A stretch of 60,632 bases of DNA, the filler included, from Bipalium vagum (Eukaryota): NCBI GenBank assembly GCA_037834085.1. It is 3 parts of 3 records of this genome, joined end to end, with 100 filler letters (N's around TTAATTAATTAA, not from the genome) between each part and the next. Parts side by side here need not be neighbours in the genome. Positions count along the whole stretch, not along the records: positions 1 to 20,543 come from JBBMKC010250586.1; 2 more parts are not named here. One strand, 5' to 3'. Below are positions 3,671-54,800 of this stretch, piece after piece. The translations under genes and the position numbers were made by a program. Numbering within the stretch: the first letter of the stretch is position 1; each line of letters begins with the position of its first letter. Below the pieces are notes generated by a model. That model was given only the letters and a program-made list of their open reading frames with translations, did no database searches and was not told where the DNA came from.

Positions 3671-4629
3671 TGATTCCAATGTTCCATTCATTATTTATAG
3701 ATATATTAAATTACAAAATAAATTTTTATAAAATTGGCAATTTTGCGATTTGGAAAAAATAAAAAAGTGTAATATTACAAAAATAAAATAATTAAAAAAA
3801 TTAATTTTTCATTTTAATTTCTTTTCTGATTGGTGGTATGTAAATATTTTGCAAAATATAAGTGAATTATGATTATTTTTACTGAAATCCAAGCCATCAT
3901 TTTCAGTTTTGGCAGAGCTCCAGCATAGTTTAATAAAAAATTAGATATGCAAGAATTTCACTCATCAAAGAATAATTAAATATTTGATTTATTTCACTTT
4001 TGAAGCTCGGTTCAATCATTTTTTCGTGGATTTTAAATTGACCAAGTGAAATAAAAACAAAATTGGGCGTTTTAAAAGTCGCATTTAAATTTTTATTAAA
4101 AAAAGACTTTTTTATAAAGACACTTTGGAATCAATTATTATTGCCATTGCAGAACAGTTCGGGGAATAATGGTGAGCACAGAATCGTGGATTTTAAATGT
4201 TTACTTACTTTATAGAAATTATTTTTTCTATTATTTATTTTATAATTATTTAAATATTTTAAATAAAAAATATTTAATAAAGCATCAAAAAAGCAGTTAT
4301 CAAATAAATTTAATATTATTGAAACGGAAAATCAATAAAATAATCAATACTATCTAAGAAACTGTGTTTATATTTATTAACGATCAATTTTAAATTTAGA
4401 TTATCAACTATAAGAAATAAAGAGAATATCATTGTAAAGCGGTATTTATTTCAGATCTATGGATTTTTACATACTTAAGCAATAAATATTATTATAATAA
4501 TTAATATTATTATTTTTTTAGTGATATTAATTAGTGATCCATTTTATTATAATAAAAAATAAAAAAAATTTTGTGTCATTTTGTCTTATGTAAAAACAGG
4601 AAATTCTAAAATATAAAGAATTTAAAATT

Positions 4630-4670
4630 CTAACAATTATCAATATTATCAATATTATCAATATTATCAA

Positions 4671-4705
<35 letters not shown>

Positions 4706-5352
4706 GTTTTATGATTATTATTTTTATTTTCATTATTATTGTTATTAATACTGTTATTTTTATCATTATTTCTATTATTTTTATTGTTATTACCATTATT
4801 TTTATTTTTATTATTGTTTTTATTATCATCTTTATTATTTTTATTATTTCTTATATTACTATTATTCTTATTATTCATGTTATTATTCTTATTATTAGTT
4901 TTATTGTTTTTCTTAATATTGTTATTATTATTTCTATTTAGTTTTTTATTTTTATTATTATTATTGATATTATTCTTAATGGTACTATTTCTAATTTTAT
5001 TTTTATTTATCTTATTATTGCTGTTATTCAGAAGTTTATAATTATCCTTATTATTAATGATTTCAGTATTATTATCAGTAATTTTATAGACTTTATTAAT
5101 ATTATTTGGTATTGTTGAGTTATTATTTCTTAGCTTATTGATGACCAGTGAGTAATCCAATAACCCATTCTTAAATTTTGAGTCTCTTTTAATTATATTT
5201 TTTATGATTGGAGTGCCGTAAGGCCTAGATCTTTGGTGGAGGTATGGATTAGTCACTAGGGGAAGTGGAGAAGGAAAGTTAGGGTTAAACAAAAGAGCTA
5301 AGCGAGTGGGGGGTTGGATATAGAAATTAGCATTGTTATTATGAGGAAACAC
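4630..5352 (-). other. Pro-rich then Asn/Lys-rich low-complexity ORF of an unclassified repeat family
   Basis: NPYLHQRSRPYGTPIIK matches DPYYLNQRSRPNDTPIIK read on the minus strand at about 40420-40480. Confidence 0.45.
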
Positions 5353-5599
5353 AGGATAAATATGGGTAGGATTATTATACGGGGAAAAAGGAAAAAAATA
5401 AGGATAAAGATTTCTACTATAGTTATTATTTAAGTTCCTATTTAGTGATTTTAAAGAAAAAAAATATTCCTGTGATTATATATGGTATTATGATTTGACC
5501 TTAAGATTTTGCTTATAACGTTAAATTTATTAGAATTTTTATTTATTACATTATTTAAATTAATAAATAAAATATAGTAAACGAAAAATAAGTCCATCG

Positions 5600-6110
5600 C
5601 GGTATCCATCCTCAGATCCAACCAGGGCTCATTCTTGGATGGTTGGGGATTGGACCCATGATCAATCGGGAGGGGATAAGTGCTCCTTGCTTGAGTTTGT
5701 ATTATATCAGGGGGCTCTTTTCCCGAGAATAATAGATCCTGGGCATCACTGCAGGACCAAGACTGGACCTAAAAAGTTGTACTCATGACATTCGAAACGA
5801 CTGATTCAGGGTGCTCATTCCCTGAGATCAATTCCGTTTTGATGTCAACTGCATCACGGGGCTCATTTCGTGTAATCAGCGCCTGTACCGGGTCACTGTG
5901 ATCAGTGAGTGACCGCAGTAAATCCTGAGGCTCAATGCAGGATTTTGACAGAGTAAAAATAAAAATAGAGAAAATGATCGCAAAAGAATCTGATCTCAAA
6001 CTGTGTATAGTTTTCTCAGATACCTGGGGCTCAATCCAGATACTCGGGTATTGACTTACGGAGATGACCGCGTAATGTCAATAGATCCTGGAGATAACTG
6101 CAGGATCGCG
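5600..6110. repeat. Array of stem-loops with shared loop GGCTCAWT
   Basis: Loops at 5626, 5713, 5812, 5860, 5929 and 6028, each closed by different complementary arms; two related TCCTG-N10-CAGGA hairpins at 5738 and 6084. Confidence 0.7.
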
Positions 6111-6981
6111 GCTGAGGTCCAAGATATATAAAAATGCAATAAAAGATACACCTTCTGCCGTTTTTGCATTCCCGTCGGCCACGGGATAAAGAGTTGGCGT
6201 GGGTACTTTAACCTCTGCACGTTCCCTCAGAGGGGTAGTTTTTGGATCGGTGGATTCCGCACTGTTTTGTTAGGGTGAATTGTAATTTATAAATACCCAC
6301 AATAAACCGTCTTCACCAAAAAACTAGTTTTACGTCCGCCTGTTAGCTTGGACGGATCCTTTACGTCTGGATCTCCTACGGGTATGGTGCTTCCATATAG
6401 ACAATATCTTTGATGATAAAAAATAGATTTTCATTTTAATGTTAACCTTTTTTATATAATCAGGCGAAGTATTGCTAATATAGTAAGTCAAGAGGCTTTA
6501 ACATCTCTAGCTTTTGATAAATTTTCATGAAATAACAAAACTAATACATTATGAAAACAAAATACTGATTTGAAACTGATTTTTAGGTTAGAAATTTTGA
6601 TAGAGATAAATAAAACTTCGAATTATAATTTTATCAAATTTAATTCAGACAAATGAAGAAAGTAAACAAATATTTATTGTAAAACTTCATTACAGCAGGT
6701 TACATAAGCAGTATATGAGAAGTCGGTCCTTGTTTATGGTCTGTTATAAAAAAACGTATACAAAATAAATAACGACACCGACAGGGCGGCTTCAATGTAA
6801 ATATTACTAATTGACTCGCCCTGGTAAGCATTCATTAAACAAAAAAGCAGTATCATTGTCACATAACATTCAACAATCACAATCAAGCATTCTAAAATAA
6901 TAAAATTCCTATCACCACCAAATACTATTAGATAATCTCAGGTCGACTAGAAGATCACAATACTGGCAGTCTTCTTGAAAA

Positions 6982-17303
<10,322 letters not shown>

Positions 17304-18773: not shown

Positions 18774-19484
18774 ATGAAGCTTTATTGTGATGATTTCTTA
18801 AATAATAATTCTGTAAAAATAATTCTAATTTACCAGAAATTTTTAGAATGTTAATTATTGGTCCTTCTGGATCTGGTAAAACAATGTTATTGTATAATGT
18901 TATTAAAGAAAGATTATATGGATTATAACAATTTGATTATTTTTACTAAAACTGCTTTTCTTCAACCGGCTTTAAAATATATTAAAGATTGTTTTGATTA
19001 TAGATTATCTAAAGAAGTTTGTCAAATGTTTAAAAATGAAAAAAATATATAAATTTGATGAAAAAAATTACACATAAATCCGAGAAATTAAAATTACATT
19101 GTCAGATAAAGCAAATGAAATTCAATCCCCAGATAAATTGGATAAAACTAAAAAATATTTAATTATTTTTGATGATGTAATAAATGAAAAAAATCAACAT
19201 ATTATGGAAATTTATTTACTAGAGGAAGACATAATAAATGTTCAGTAATATATTTATCTCAATCATTTTTTGATTTACCATTAAGATCAATAAGAAATAA
19301 TACAAATGTCTTAATTTTATTTGAAATTTCTCAAAATAATAAATCTCAAATTTATACGAAAATGTTATCACATTTTATTGATAAAGAAGAGTATGATTAT
19401 TTATTCAATTTTCACATGAATCAAAAATATAATTATTTTTTTATAAATTTAGAGATTAAAAAAATAGAATATTCAGCTTTTTAA
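18774..19484 (+). pseudogene. Maverick/Polinton A32/FtsK-like DNA packaging ATPase, frameshifted
   Basis: RMLIIGPSGSGKT (Walker A, 18860-18883), LIIFDDV (Walker B), YFTRGRHNKCSVIYLSQSFFDLPLRSIRNNTNVLILF. Confidence 0.9.
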
Positions 19485-19523: not shown

Positions 19524-20484
19524 ATGGAAGAAGTATTAAATTACCATAGATACTCGAATATAAGTCGACCTCGTGTATGTCGAGGGGGAAAAATGGGAAA
19601 TTATGTGAAAAACCGTATGACTCTTATATAAGTCGAGGTAAAAATATGTCTGAGTAGTTTCCTCTTTCGTAAATTTGGAAAATAACATAAAATAACAAGG
19701 AAAAATGTCAATCTTTTGATACTTTTTTGCAAAATATTCGTGATAATATTTATATTTTTATTTACAAACATAGCATCATAGGTAACATTTTTTCAAAACC
19801 ACAAAATTCGGAATCCGAGTCTGATTGAAGAAGTTGCAATGCCTGCTCATTAGTCATATGGTCTGAATAGAAGTCTTCATCATCCGATTCGTCATAATCT
19901 TCGGCAGCGTTGGTGTCATGTATCCAGAGTATGTGGTCTTCATTTCCGTCCACCTTGTTTGATATCCCGGTCTTCTTGAAGCTGTATGAGATGAGTGGGG
20001 CCTCTATCGTCTCCCAGGCTGTTTTGGTCCACCCAGTGACTGTCAAGAGGTCTGGTCGTTTCAGGTTTCTAGCTTTGGTAGTCTGCGCTTGTCCAATGGA
20101 CATCCACGATGTCCATTGGTCTCTTACATGACACTTTAATGGTCGGTTGATGCTGACACCAAGTAGCTGGAGTATAGAAGTGAGTCCACCTGGAATGACT
20201 GCATAACGAAACATAAATGATAACCAGTATTCAATTATGAACACAACGTGATACATTGCATAAATACAGCCATTACATTTGTTAAAACTGCTGACTCTTA
20301 TATAAGTCGACCCCATTTTTTTCATCAAATTTTATATTCGAGTTTCTACGGTACGATAAAATTTATTATCATCGAAAAACAGCCTATGAGAAAACAGATT
20401 ATTATGAAGTAACTTTAGATCCAGAAACAATTACAAATTTAAATGATAATGGAAATTTAACATTTACACTTTTTTTCTAATTAA
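19524..20484 (+). pseudogene. Probable major capsid protein N-terminus, interrupted by a pogo insertion
   Basis: Removing 19544-20353 restores MEEVLNYDKIYYHRKTAYEKTDYYEVTLDPETITNLNDNGNLTFTLF; follows penton and ATPase; E..P...NLN..G pattern. Confidence 0.5.
19544..20351 (-). mobile_element. Internally deleted pogo/Tigger-family element
   Basis: TA-flanked TIRs CCATAGATACTCGAATATAA / TTATATTCGAGTTTCTACGG; VIPGGLTSILQLLGVSINRPLK...AWETI...SFKKTGIS. Confidence 0.9.
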
Positions 20485-20543: not shown

Positions 20544-20643
20544 NNNNNNNNNNNNNNNNNNNNNNNNNNNNNNNNNNNNNNNNNNNNTTAATTAATTAAN
20601 NNNNNNNNNNNNNNNNNNNNNNNNNNNNNNNNNNNNNNNNNNN
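20544..20643. other. Assembly gap with TTAATTAATTAA spacer
   Basis: N runs flanking a six-frame-stop linker; identical structure at 40740. Confidence 0.95.
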
Positions 20644-38757: not shown

Positions 38758-39600
38758 TCAACTAATGTTATTCATATCATCTTTCAAAATAGTATAGGAT
38801 TTACTAGAATCATTATCGTACAAAATAGCATATTTGTATTCATTTGTTCCAACTGCTTCTTCGTGTTTATCTGTATTAGAGAAATAGTTCAGAGATCCAT
38901 CATTATTCCAATTAGAAGATGGCCAGTAAGGCAGAGAGCTAGAAGCCGGAGTGCAATGATCGATGATTTTTACATTTAAAGAATTTAGCTGTTCAGGTAT
39001 TAATGAATTAGTATGTTCTTTAAGTATTGCAACATTTACTGATACTGTACTTGGATTTTCTATATATGTAACACCTGGTGGTCTATAATCGTAGTAGTAA
39101 AAATCATCATTTTCATTACCCTTTCTAGCATATTTTCCAGATCTAACATATTTTCGACTTGAAAATTGTTGATCTTGATTCAAGCGTCGATCTTTACCTC
39201 TTCGATTTTGAAACCAATTGCGTACCTTTTCTATTGGTAAATGTAATTCTTCAGCAATTTCTTCTCTTCTTTTTCGGTTAATAAATGTTGACGATTGATA
39301 AATACTTTCTAATATATCTACAACATGTTTTGATAGTCTATTAGTATCTCCAATTACAGGACTGGGTAAATTCTTTTCAAATTTAACATTTGGATCCTTA
39401 GATGATGTTGACATCTCTCTCTCCTTTGCTATCTGTTCCTTTGATATTTCAATTAAGTACTTTACTGATTCATCGATGCTATAATTTTTTGATTCTGATT
39501 CCAAAGAATAAAAATCTCTTTTATTTGGTTGTATTTTTATGGAATCATAATACTCAGAGTAATCCGGGTATAAATAATATTCTTCATAAATGAAATTCAT
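38758..39600 (-). CDS. Divergent homeodomain transcription factor, single-exon 280 aa (homeodomain about 39178-39357)
   Basis: Open 280-codon ORF in very AT-rich DNA; LESIY...RREEIAEELHLPIEKVRNWFQNRRGKDRR. Confidence 0.88.
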   Translation of the reverse strand: MNFIYEEYYLYPDYSEYYDSIKIQPNKRDFYSLESESKNYSIDESVKYLIEISKEQIAKEREMSTSSKDPNVKFEKNLPSPVIGDTNRLSKHVVDILESIYQSSTFINRKRREEIAEELHLPIEKVRNWFQNRRGKDRRLNQDQQFSSRKYVRSGKYARKGNENDDFYYYDYRPPGVTYIENPSTVSVNVAILKEHTNSLIPEQLNSLNVKIIDHCTPASSSLPYWPSSNWNNDGSLNYFSNTDKHEEAVGTNEYKYAILYDNDSSKSYTILKDDMNNIS

Positions 39601-40665
39601 GTCAGAATTTTAAAAATATTATGATTGATTTATTTAGTTTAAATATTCTAAGTATTAGTAATTATTATTTTTTAATCATATATCACTTTTTACATAAAAT
39701 AACTCAGAAATTCTAAATATATTTCTGTTGGTATTGATGATCGTAATAAACTTAAGATTGATAATAAAAATAAATTTGAAGTAAATTTGTATAAATAATT
39801 ATTATTATTTCCGAGGCCACTTTGTAAATTGGTAATTATTTCAATAATTTATTTAGAAGAAATTTAGGATCATGTTTTTTTTACCGGTCTGTTACATCAA
39901 GTCTCTTTTTTGACCGATCTCAATTTGTTCATGTTAATATTAAAGAAATAAATATTAAATGAATAAGCAGCATGGTGATGGGTATTCCATTTGATGAAAT
40001 TATGTTTCAAGAGAAAACAGTCGGTTATTCCTATTAGGTAATTTATAATAATATTTATATTAATATAATAAATTAATGTATCCATTAAAAAAAGCAACAC
40101 TATTTAACAAAACACTTCTTGACCATCTTCGTCGGAATATTTGATATTTCCACTTCATTTAAGTTTATCTTGGACATCATTGTGTATTTTCCTTTTCCTT
40201 AGTATTCCTATTTCTGTTATTACCTTTACTCTTATTCTTATTTTTTTGTTATTCTTAATATTATCATTTTTATTAATTTTATTTAGTTAGGATCGACCCG
40301 TATTACTTGAATCTTGGTTATTTAAAGTTAAATGAGGTTGTTTCTAATTAAAATTGTCAATTTTAGCTGCAGAAGCATAGCTCTTTTTCAACTTTTTTGG
40401 AGTTTGATCCCAAAAACCAGATTTTATGATGGGAGTATCGTTAGGTCTCGATCTTTGATTCAAATAATATGGGTCGATATTAATTAATTGAGAAAGAGAG
40501 GAAGTGGAGAGTTATAGTTGAAGAAAGGTGTCACATTTATGGGCCTTGGAAGATCACAAAAGTAAGTTACTGAAGACACGGTCGTTTCAAGGTCTGTTGT
40601 TATTAATTTCTATGTAGAAATGAGGAAAAATTGTGACATTTTTTTAAATTATTGAGTTGTAGCAA

Positions 40666-40739: not shown

Positions 40740-40839
40740 NNNNNNNNNNNNNNNNNNNNNNNNNNNNNNNNNNNNNNNNNNNNTTAATTAATTAANNNNN
40801 NNNNNNNNNNNNNNNNNNNNNNNNNNNNNNNNNNNNNNN
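40740..40839. other. Assembly gap with TTAATTAATTAA spacer
   Basis: N runs with linker. Confidence 0.95.
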
Positions 40840-50710: not shown

Positions 50711-51833
50711 AATAGTAAATTAATTATTCTTTAGGTTTCCTAAATAATAGTTTTAAAAAATTTTTTTATTTTTAATATAGAAAAGAACTAATTAAAATCT
50801 TTATAAATTTTAATATATTATCAACTATTATTCTTATTATCAGTGATATTGTTATCATTATCACTAACCAAGTGCTATTATTATTATTATTATCGATAAT
50901 ATAAACATAACCATTAATTGTTATTATTTTTATTTTATATAAATTTTTTAAGTTTTATAAATTATATAATAATATTTATTATAGTAATATATATTATTAT
51001 ATGTTTTATTTATTATTATAGTTATTATTTTATTTTTATTATTCGTTTTTATTTTAAAATTTAAAACTTAGTAATTATATCATGTATTTTTTGTTATTAT
51101 ATATATTTGGCTTATGTATGGAAAGTGAACCTTTTTAAAATATCGTTTCTTTTTATAATAATAAGTAATGCAAATATTAAGTAAACCAAACAAAAAAGAT
51201 AATTTATTCAAAATATTTTCCAAAATTATCTTTTAAATGCAAATATCATGTATAAGAAATTGTAATATTTTATTATACAGATTATATTTAAGTAAAATTT
51301 TTTTCTTCACGTATGTCCTGAATTTGAATTTTATATTTGTTATTTATAATTTATAATGCACAATCATTAATATATTTGATTGATATGAAATCAGAACAGT
51401 AAAATAAGTTATTATATTAAGTATTATTTTTAAAAAGTAAAATCGTATGAAATGATATGATGTTATATGACCTGAATTCTAAAACAATAGATTTTTGTCA
51501 AATTGTAACATGCATAAGATAATTATGGGATTATATCGAATTTTGTTCTAAATAAAGTAAAGAATGTGAAATTTGAGATATTTGATTTATGTAATTAGTA
51601 ATTAGTAAAAAATATTTATAAAATACTTAAATATTGTTATGATATCTAAGAAACATTGAGATATGAAGTTTAATTTGAAAGATTTTGCTTTAATTTTGAT
51701 TACAAGAAATATCTTTTGGTTTAATAAAATATTTTATTGTTACATTTTTATGTAATATTATCATGAGAAAAAAATATTTTTGAAAATTTTTTTATTTTTA
51801 TACAAAAATTATTTATTTTATTAATGTATTTAG

Positions 51834-54800
51834 ATGCCATTTGGCATAGTGACCTGGATTTTTTATTTGATCCTGACAATTGGCATGAAACATATATCCG
51901 TGATGAAAGCTGGCGAATCACATGGCTACTACGACCGCAATATTTCAATCTTATATTTTGTTTGATATGTTTGATAATGAAATATCCTGGAGTCTTTTGG
52001 GATTGTCACAAAGCATTTGCATTTACATTTTCATTTTTAATAACACTGGCCAGTATTCATATAATCATGGATTATAGCACTACAAGTGTTCTTATTCGAT
52101 TAGCTGCGAATCGCGATTTTCTGGCGGATAAATTGCAAATTACTTTCATCTCACCAATTTTCTTAATGATGTTTTCAATGTTAGGATCAAGTATAATCCT
52201 CATAACTTTTTGGTGTGTATTTGAATTCGGATTTCAACAATTCCTTGATAATTTATCTCGTTACCGTCATTTAATGGACCTTCAATGTGATGATTCTCAT
52301 AATGGCAGTAATTTATCTGAGTTTGCTTGCTGTAAACGAAAACATCTTTATTTGCGAGGATATCTTCCACATGTTGGTGGGATTTGTGGATGTGCAATTG
52401 GTTTCAGTATGAAAATTCCTCTTTTTTATGCTGGTATAAATATCATCTATCAAAACACTGGTGATCCAATGATGATTATTAATCTAGTCGTCTCCATTAT
52501 CTTTATATGCTTGTGGTTAATAACATGGTTTGGGTTTACTCTGAAACCAAGTTGGAGATTTTTTGTAAGTTCAAATTTACGAAATTTATACTCTACATGC
52601 TAGTTATTAAATATTTAGAAAAATATTGAATTTATTTAATTTGGTTTTATTGGTTGCACTCGGAAATTTTATAAAAATATAAAGTTGTGACGAAAGCAAT
52701 AACCAATTTTAATAAATACTAAAATTCAGTAACTCAGTAAAAAAACGTTATTAATCAAAATATAATCCTTTGAAATCCAGAAACCTCTGACTAGGAGAAA
52801 TAAGTATATTGGTGGCAGTACATCTTTACCGCTATATTTTCACCAGCGTTTTGAATGTTTTGATTGATCAGGCCAATTATGGATCACCAAACTGTCAACA
52901 TAACTTTTATGGTGCTAAATTGGTTTTGGAATTGTTTAGAAGCGTTATCATGTTTCTTAATTTATTATAGAAACTCATTTCTCATTGCTCGTCATTTGTT
53001 GAAGAAATTGATCATTATTGTTGTGCAAAAGAAATGAATATGACACTTGAAAACTGCGATTCCTTTGTTTTTTACACAAATTTTTATCAGTAATAAGTTA
53101 ACTAATAATTATTTATTTTGGACAATAAATAAGCTGACCAGTCCAAGAGTTCTCATATAAGTAACGGTTTCATTATCTTATCTGCAAAAAAAACATTGAA
53201 AAGACTTGGATGGGAGGTTTCACATCACCCACCGTATTCATCAGACAAAGTTCTGACTTCCACTTGTTTCGATCCATTTAGCATTCTCTTGCTGGACAGG
53301 CTTTCAATTCCTATCAGGATGTCAAAAAAAGGATGGATCAATGGATTGCTTCAAAGGATCAAGATTCCTTTTACTGGGGAATCCGTTCTTTGATCGAAAG
53401 ATGCCAACGGAAAATATTTTGACTGAAATAAATATTTTGTTAATTTTAAGTAAATTACTTTTTTCATTATAAAACGATGGGAATTAATTCTCATACCTAA
53501 TATTTATCTAAAAATTTTCCGATTAACTGTTAAAAAATTATTATAAAGAACAAAATAGATTGTTGATAATAATTATTAGCTTGTCTTATAAAATGTCCGA
53601 TCACATGATAAAAAAAGACAATGAAGCACATATGGGAAATTTTTTATTTACTTAAAAATTAAACACATTTTTACCAAAGTCTTCATAGGTTTTGAATACC
53701 TTTTATATGTGCTTTCTAGAAGTGATAAAGTCTGATAGACTTGTTTCGATACCCTCCGATTTGTAAATATTTTCTTGGTCAAAAAATTTGGAGATGCTTA
53801 AAGAAATGGTAATCCATTGGTGTTCAGGTCTGAGAAATAAGTGGGATCTTGCGGACTTTCTATTCGTAGATCAATTAGTTTTCTAGTCTTTTTGTGATAG
53901 TATATTGTTATGCAACAGAAATACTAGTTGACCACTGAAGGCTTACTTTTTTGTACATTATTTCTATATCGGAGTTGCATTTTTCGGCTGTAATAGTCTT
54001 GTATTATTCTGATCCACAAATTTATTTCTTTCTTTCATTTTTAGTAGAGTTAGTTTGCATCGTTTAGATTTCTCAGCTTCATTTAAATGTGCTCTTAAAG
54101 ATTTAATATTTCATTATTTAAAATTTTTTTAATTTTTAAATTAACTTTAAAAGGAGGCAATTTTAAAATAAATGACAAATTTTATATTTAGGGTCTAAAA
54201 ATTTGACTGTTTAGAGAGGTATTTTTGTTAAAATCTACTTATATATATTTAAAAGTAATACAAAATGACGTTATATGGAGGTGACTTTATAAAGAAGTTC
54301 GACTGTAGTCAGAAAGAAAAATGATTTGCACGAGGACTCAGCCGAATCACAAAATTTATATTACCACAAATCAAATTGAGTGGTACAAAGGGAAAGAAAA
54401 CAATAATTGAATGGCTAAAATAATGGGAGCAATCTTCTGAGGAGAAGGGTTAGAAATTTCTTTTAGCTGTTTTTTATAAATACTTTTGTTTTAATAATTA
54501 CTTGAAATAAAATATTTTTCTATCTACATGTACCTATCAACAATGAAGAAAAATAGTTCGAAATAATAAAAAGTAATTTCTCTAAAATCCATTTATTTGT
54601 AGATATCTAGTTCTAAAGGATTTTCTGACATTACATCGACTACAATTGCTAATAGTATGTCAACTATGATGCAACAGCAAAAATTACAATCACGTGATCA
54701 GATGAGAAATGATGGAGTCAATCAAATTTATGCATGTTATCATGGCATGAATCCATGTTTGGTAATTGATGAAAATAGACTCCGAAGCGATGACAGCTAC

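Follow-up and report, generated by a model that had tools for sequence, protein, structure and literature searches.

A flatworm array of 11 small hairpins with a common loop and exchangeable stems

The genome of Bipalium vagum carries a real array of 11 small hairpins, under selection at the nucleotide level. It is multicopy, lies within a coding frame and has no known relative. The stretch studied (the window) comprises 60,632 nt in three joined parts with filler between them, and the array lies in the part at positions 1-20,543 (JBBMKC010250586.1). By analogy with described systems, the array most likely works like the known cis-acting RNA signals in transposon ORFs.

Hairpin inventory and form

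The hairpins lie within 5618-6107 and consist of 5-7-bp stems around a 10-nt loop (Table 1). The loop's minus-strand sequence is nAnUnAnCnC, with an A that never varies and four other positions that are constant in 10 of the 11 hairpins. The first-pass annotation had listed six arm-loop-arm strings, each of which occurs once (loops 5626, 5713, 5812, 5860, 5929 and 6028), with the spacing of 48-99 nt that it gave (measured 87, 99, 48, 69 and 99, all multiples of 3). It had set apart other hairpins as interspersed: one with GGTCACT/AGTGACC arms, which indeed spans 5891-5914, and two of the form TCCTG-N10-CAGGA, which exist but at 5737 and 6086, not 5738 and 6084, with a third copy at 5923. All of these belong to the same family, which reaches 11 with two more members (5674 and 6062). 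The loop, described there as 8 nt, is 10 nt in the common register, because the innermost "pair" is often G.G or A.G.

In this copy the 5626 hairpin, read in register, keeps 2 of its 5 core pairs, and in the local ensemble neither it nor the 5860 hairpin forms in the array register. When the 11 hairpins were made into a covariance model, it detected no second array in the window (best outside match E 0.82). Just within the right edge of the repeat, at 6330-6400, there are two or three more GC-rich hairpins of another loop class.

Table 1. Coordinates of the hairpins, reading frames and repeated sequence in the window
Feature	Position	Strand	Remark
Hairpin 11 of 11 in minus-strand order, core 5626	5618..5641	-	Weak in this copy
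Hairpin, second loop class, core 5674	5666..5689	-	Additional to the first-pass annotation
Hairpin, core 5713	5705..5728	-	One G-U pair on minus strand
Hairpin, second loop class, core 5743	5735..5758	-	
Hairpin, core 5812	5804..5827	-	Perfect 6-bp stem
Hairpin, core 5860	5852..5875	-	Out-competed in this copy's local folding
Hairpin, second loop class, core 5899	5891..5914	-	7-bp stem
Hairpin, core 5929	5921..5944	-	7-8-bp stem
Hairpin, core 6028	6020..6043	-	Forms on minus only, p 1.0 vs 0.01 (40-nt span)
Hairpin, second loop class, core 6062	6054..6077	-	Additional to the first-pass annotation; in this copy, out of the common codon phase
Hairpin, second loop class, core 6092	6084..6107	-	Codon phase differs in this copy
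Further hairpin, 5-nt loop, outside array class	6165..6185		Stretch 6158-6190 found again in some copies
Near-open reading frame holding the array	5460..6269	-	270 codons, 2 stops; intron-free
Downstream Asn-rich open frame	4630..5448	-	Listed ORF 4630-5352, 240 aa, 97 Asn
Multicopy stretch	5060..6430		Right boundary near 6400-6440; left boundary left of 5060
Distant broken paralog of Asn-rich part	40150..40630	-	Adjoins (AAT)n run and N filler; no array seen

Pairing beyond chance

Pairing exceeded that of dinucleotide-shuffled sequence, a comparison that the first-pass annotation had proposed. Between 5590 and 6110 we counted 5 hairpins that have a GCTC loop and pair at 4 or more of 5 core positions, compared with a mean of 0.001 (maximum 1) in 2000 dinucleotide shuffles, and a wider loop motif gave 9 hairpins compared with a mean of 0.057 (maximum 3; 2000 dinucleotide shuffles). 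Sites were also picked by the loop motif alone, so as not to select on pairing. At least 4 of 5 core pairs were present at 10 of the 13 such sites in the array, versus 15 of 500 elsewhere on the same strand; the sites without pairing were 5626, 5659 and 5825, of which only 5626 entered the alignment.

Because the 11 alignment rows are paralogs from one locus, and thus non-independent, the counts drawn from them are not probabilities, and the sites were partly chosen for pairing: 81.8% of 77 cells pair, versus 54.0% with the 3' letters redealt (0 of 500 shuffles) and 27-49% in slid registers, and all seven stem pairs show changes on both sides. RNAalifold recovers the same stem, with both-sided changes in 5 of 5 pairs.

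A reading frame over the array

The array had been placed in the leader of an element, a description that does not hold: it sits in a minus-strand reading frame that encodes the xEP peptides named in the first-pass annotation. Over 5460-6269 the other five frames contain 13-23 stops, and in 2000 shuffles of this stretch the best frame never had fewer than 3. Because the stretch was chosen after the fact, we scanned the whole window for near-open stretches and found only five places with 270 codons and at most 3 stops, namely the array frame, the Asn-rich frame next to it and three further long ORFs. A single codon phase is common to 9 of the 11 hairpins (loops 5626-6028; chance (1/3)^8 = 1.5e-4), and the hairpins at 6062 and 6092 are offset from it.

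The Asn-rich frame carries the motif YLxQRSRPxxTPIIK and in this copy is in a different frame from the array part. This copy is decayed, its frame holding two stops and shifting near 5450 and near 6045; other copies probably carry a continuous frame from the array into the Asn-rich part.

Two layers of constraint

To separate peptide from stems, we kept each hairpin's nine amino acids fixed and redrew synonymous codons in 20,000 rounds. The observed 50 of 55 core pairs compare with a resampled mean of 35.8 and were reached in 1 of the 20,000 rounds. One stem pair links two third codon positions. It is Watson-Crick in 10 of 11 hairpins, against a resampled mean of 3.1 (0 of 20,000), and in all 11 when G-U is counted; four types are used (C-G, A-U, G-C and G-U). 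Two third-position loop bases are each constant in 10 of 11 hairpins (1 and 0 of 20,000 resamplings), and the amino acids over the loop vary widely (N/I/T/S/K/G, E/D/Y/H and P/H/A/L). These results support the conclusion that the stems are not explained by the peptide and that selection acts on nucleotide pairing.

The first-pass annotation had named an xEP peptide repeat kept without compensatory stem changes as evidence against its structural reading. The region is coding, yet its stems still covary at synonymous positions, and therefore both layers are under constraint. The pairing is thus conserved beyond the needs of the protein, the property by which we judged likeness to cis-acting structured RNAs inside mobile-element ORFs.

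Could a peptide repeat (S-x-xEP-x-D) or a decayed tandem duplication pair by accident, with no functional structure? Ser and Asp codons do give a TC/GA pair for free, and three hairpins have ATCCTG/CAGGA arms in common by descent. This explanation is nevertheless largely refuted by the single resampling in 20,000 that reached the observed pairing and by the four pair types at one column; moreover, nine unrelated viral loci with three GGGCTCAWT copies each have no such array. Covariation, synonymous resampling and the sites picked by motif alone all bear out the earlier proposal that pairing was selected and is not a product of tandem decay.

Multicopy state and differences between copies

Contigs of sequencing run X1, possibly the source sample, supported the earlier suggestion of a multicopy element over 5060-6430. 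Their summed depth was 55-1489 in 20 bins across 5060-6439 and 22-38 in the right flank; summed depth is not copy number, and in this one run it corresponds to roughly tens of diverged copies at most. Among the 256 contigs aligned, 129 were less than 90% alike, and pieces of this locus matched without difference. Depth dips coincide with the AT-rich linkers between hairpin blocks, and the shared sequence ends sharply about 150 nt beyond the array frame. The broken paralog at 40.2-40.6 kb, about 35 kb further along the joined stretch and in another part, also has YLxQRSRPxxTPIIK. The multicopy state, sharp right edge, diverged copies and broken paralog fit a mobile element; this term rests on copy number and decay, because no mobility domain or terminal signature was found. 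In one X1 contig, whose depth (20.6) is that of a single copy, the sequence leaps from 6452 backwards to 5491; this may represent an arrangement in tandem or with terminal repeats, or an AT-rich match by chance.

Copies were compared over 5060-7100, where 40 of 161 differences were listed. Third codon positions of the minus frames hold 23 of the 36 listed differences left of 6040 (p 1.7e-4): 7 of 8 in the downstream open frame, 12 of 22 in the array and 4 of the remaining 6. For the array alone the excess is modest (p 0.03), and 8 of its 22 listed differences are synonymous, where a plus frame with 10 stops gives 10 of 22; the 4 listed differences right of 6040 do not decide a frame. The 12 listed of 24 indel rows amount to 6 events by depth, of which 4 net a multiple of three and the other 2 sit where this copy changes frame (near 5450 and 6045). 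Purifying selection acts between copies. Within the hairpins, a difference at 5636 adds a pair to the 5626 hairpin and several listed differences shift loops towards the common motif (5718 and 5928); a well-supported one at 5823 breaks a stem pair, unless its partner is among the 121 further differences.

Purifying selection between copies would also be expected of a host multigene family, intron-free, fast-evolving and Asn-rich, whose hairpins, with a host protein bound to them, serve as coding-region mRNA control elements for localisation, stability or ribosome pacing. The T-rich linkers between hairpins, which encode short hydrophobic runs, are in keeping with such a family, as is the failure to find a mobility enzyme or terminal signature. 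We consider it unlikely, given that this copy and the 40.2-40.6 kb paralog are both broken, that the shared sequence stops so abruptly past the frame and that the neighbours are transposon remnants.

Strand and molecule

The region 5590-6260 folds with z of -5.25 on the plus and -4.39 on the minus strand (20 shuffles each). With RNA parameters and a 40-nt span, 8 of 11 hairpins form on the minus strand at p>=0.5 versus 6 of 11 on the plus strand; with a 150-nt span the numbers are 6 and 5, and the strand asymmetry is weak. DNA parameters give 8 (minus) and 6 (plus) of 11 at 40 nt, and 5 and 4 at 150 nt.

The lower plus-strand z leaves some room for a non-coding structured leader, possibly on that strand and transcribed away from the Asn-rich gene, with the open minus frame incidental. 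The linkers are A-rich on the plus strand, as unpaired RNA linkers often are, and this copy has no long ATG-started ORF. Codon phase, stop depletion, third-position bias and frame-keeping indels are all unexpected for a non-coding RNA, however, and make this improbable.

Since the array lies in a translated frame, we prefer RNA over single-stranded DNA as the acting molecule. If the DNA were to act, the hairpins would be binding or nicking sites for a Rep, capsid or recombinase protein of an integrated ssDNA virus-like or rolling-circle element, an account that we regard as rather unlikely. To our knowledge, rolling-circle origins are single non-coding hairpins and not an in-frame array, which counts against it, and no similarity to Rep, helicase or capsid was found. 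On the other side, DNA parameters fold the hairpins about as well as RNA parameters do (8 of 11 on the minus strand, 40-nt span), the stem cores contain few G-U pairs, and contig joints hint that copies differ by whole hairpin blocks. Integrated virus-like repeats (PIVE and PEVE) are also described in planarians in the parts of the source consulted (PMC3198968). A comparison with the Rep/NS1 and SF3 helicase genes of that type found neither in the element.

Searches for relatives and element class

The array matches no described family in Rfam, in agreement with the first-pass annotation: Rfam 15 gave 0 matches at the gathering threshold in the whole window (ribozymes, IRE, SECIS, miRNA and snoRNA included), and the 8 matches in 4500-7500 (E 0.54-8.7) are all far under threshold. 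In Pfam, the element's frames returned nothing at E<=1, including no transposase, RT, Gag, capsid or RNA-binding domain. Residues 1-110 of the Asn-rich ORF were related to 0 of 397 candidates among longer proteins. A search of 1.84 billion representatives with the element's query (P0001) gave a sole match, a 1511-aa tandem-repeat singleton over 25 residues, which we rejected as a repeat artefact. The best PDB match had E 0.87, and an Atlas search with two segments gave no usable match.

In nucleotide collections, tblastn confirmed 0 of 586 metagenome and 0 of 199 viral candidate loci, DNA patterns of two hairpins had 0 viral matches, and blastn found none in phages. The nine viral loci with three GGGCTCAWT loop motifs were set aside as repeats without an array of stems. 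The 16 metagenome matches to one hairpin are isolated 21-27-nt stretches without tblastx support. A viral contig with a giant-virus-bin name (L008) contains a 15-nt tandem repeat, at least 7 copies of GGGCTCATT, unrelated to the array.

Several resemblances were examined and discarded. A YGDD and an SGCS...NS stretch on the plus strand, which we presume recall RNA-polymerase motifs, lie in different frames (9 and 10 stops) about 85 codons apart, with no Pfam support. The loop partly resembles, in our estimation, those of U1A, IRE or UnaL2; this resemblance is partial and not common to all hairpin copies. A recombinase-site reading, with an 8-bp spacer between arms, was rejected because the arms vary and the spacer does not. 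No tRNA was found; a hammerhead was absent by the TGAnGA...GAAA pattern on either strand of 4400-6700 and by Rfam, and an HDV-like core by pattern and Rfam.

At the element we recognised no terminal repeat, target-site duplication, primer-binding site or ribozyme. For a Penelope-like element, there was no Pfam match (E<=1) to an RT and GIY-YIG ORF, in a copy that may be a fragment, and no hammerhead in a pLTR. For an LTR retrotransposon (Gypsy/Burro-like), a comparison confined to the window showed no second LTR and no Pfam Gag/Pol domain. For a non-LTR retrotransposon (R2/NeSL, L2/CR1 or ORF1-only derivatives), a 3' simple-repeat tail was looked for: (AAT)n and a 9-nt repeat close the minus strand, but the frame runs through it; no RT, endonuclease or ORF1 domain matched, and the candidate target-site duplications are only AT-rich chance matches. 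For TIR elements and Helitrons, only AT-rich inverted matches of 7-8 nt were found between the presumed ends, with the left boundary beyond 5060.

Proposed function and comparison with known systems

The hairpins, their covariation, the near-open frame and the multicopy state are established, and the reading that we favour for them, at a probability of roughly 0.45, is a putative cis-acting multivalent protein-binding array that forms part of an unclassified mobile element's ORF and works in the manner of the 5' coding RNA of R2 or the stem-loop in the coding region of the I factor. A module of about 30 nt would have been duplicated several times, and only frame-keeping duplications would have survived, because the ribosome must read through to the downstream protein part. 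The in-phase spacing may thus exist because the module multiplied within a frame constrained to remain open. Over the array, the peptide is probably a tolerant linker, since the loop codons vary widely while single bases stay constant.

The 10-nt loop on any 5-7-bp stem would then be read by a protein, either an RNA-binding product of the element or a transport factor of the host. Because the loop is constant, the stems are exchangeable and there are 11 repeats, a loop-reading protein that needs only a helix below would be the simplest account. [quoted passage not shown] The element itself is the likely beneficiary, because the sequence is multicopy, decaying and intron-free.

A bolder version is possible, though we hold it more doubtful: an undescribed family of animal selfish elements whose first coding region doubles as a modular RNA scaffold, in which the hairpin unit of about 30 nt was duplicated in frame to at least 11 copies, varies in number between element copies and has its loop read by an RNA-binding protein that is new and sequence-specific. 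In effect, such an ORF would contain a natural counterpart of an MS2-style tag array.

Avidity through numerous hairpins that combine variable stems with a single loop motif is known from CsrB/RsmZ-type RNAs and MS2-type packaging signals, and Rickettsia palindromic elements show that palindromes are tolerated in frame within ORFs. These systems are bacterial or phage and have other loop motifs.

Closer parallels come from mobile elements, here as far as the consulted parts of each source describe them. In R2Bm of Bombyx mori, a 323-nt 5' coding RNA directs the R2 protein (PMC2346776). It is likewise a structured RNA inside a mobile element's 5' coding region, bound by the element protein; it differs in being one 323-nt fold with a pseudoknot and dissimilar hairpins, where the array has 11 copies of one loop motif, and we found no R2 protein similarity in the array element. 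The I element has a stem-loop in ORF2 that is required for oocyte transport and occurs also in G2 and jockey (PMC6719617). This stem-loop too lies within a retrotransposon ORF and acts in cis on RNA fate, but that account describes a single element per RNA and no in-frame fixed-loop array. Ty1 and Ty3 have Gag-binding and packaging signals in the first few hundred nt of translated RNA, with multiple sites suspected (PMC4974528). They show no repeated hairpin module, and no LTR, primer-binding site or Gag was found in the array element. The consulted parts of the R2Bm, I-element and Ty1 accounts contain no repeated in-frame module (PMC2346776, PMC6719617, PMC4974528).

Bdelloid Penelope elements have long Asn-rich open frames, and their nearest relatives are flatworm Perere10 elements, according to the sections consulted (PMC3846280). 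In contrast to them, no RT, GIY-YIG, pLTR or hammerhead was found in the array element, and the words "hairpin" and "stem" do not occur in the main text of that paper. Burro giants carry accessory ORFs, as the consulted portions state (PMC6431247, PMC11410931). The Asn-rich Penelope frames, planarian virus-like repeats and Burro giants are candidate contexts for the array element. Across the literature searched (main texts, with few subscription journals and Repbase outside the scope), no such array is described.

The cis-acting RNA signals known from transposon ORFs are single, unlike structures, and the arrayed in-frame design is unusual. Eleven loop-identical, stem-swapped hairpins in codon phase represent a natural case of two codes in one sequence, and comparison of its members is enough to define its binding motif. 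Should the loop be read by a protein, the pair of hairpin and protein would be new, and it would offer a route, open to testing, for an element to recognise its own RNA. The array also marks a multicopy protein family without a relative among the representatives searched.

Other features of the window

GC content per kilobase is about 20-37% across the window, which contains G-protein beta subunit exons, a homeobox ORF and many transposase remnants. A single-exon ORF of 278 aa with several hydrophobic segments lies at 51767-52603 (plus strand); it belongs to no Pfam family, and a search for homologs of similar length scored 0 of 359 candidates. The patterns at 20544-20643 and 40740-40839 are identical, 44 N, the 12-mer TTAATTAATTAA and 44 N, which we take to be an assembly joining spacer and not biology. 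A DDE_1 transposase remnant at 19762-20331 (minus strand; Pfam E 2.2e-06) is the window's only other GC-rich island. At 18830-19484 (plus strand) there is a broken ATPase gene that has GPSGSGKT as its Walker A motif and matches Pox_A32 weakly (E 0.028, under the cut-off), presumably resembling a remnant of a Polinton-type packaging ATPase. An open frame of 283 aa at 38758-39609 (minus strand) encodes a divergent homeodomain (Pfam E 8.7e-14). The G-protein beta subunit, whose matches place the host among animals, likely flatworms, is represented by two exons at 10034-10852 (minus strand); the best named matches of the exon compared are flukes and tapeworms at 88-89% identity, with 87% to an annelid and a cephalopod, and 91% to one further, unnamed protein.
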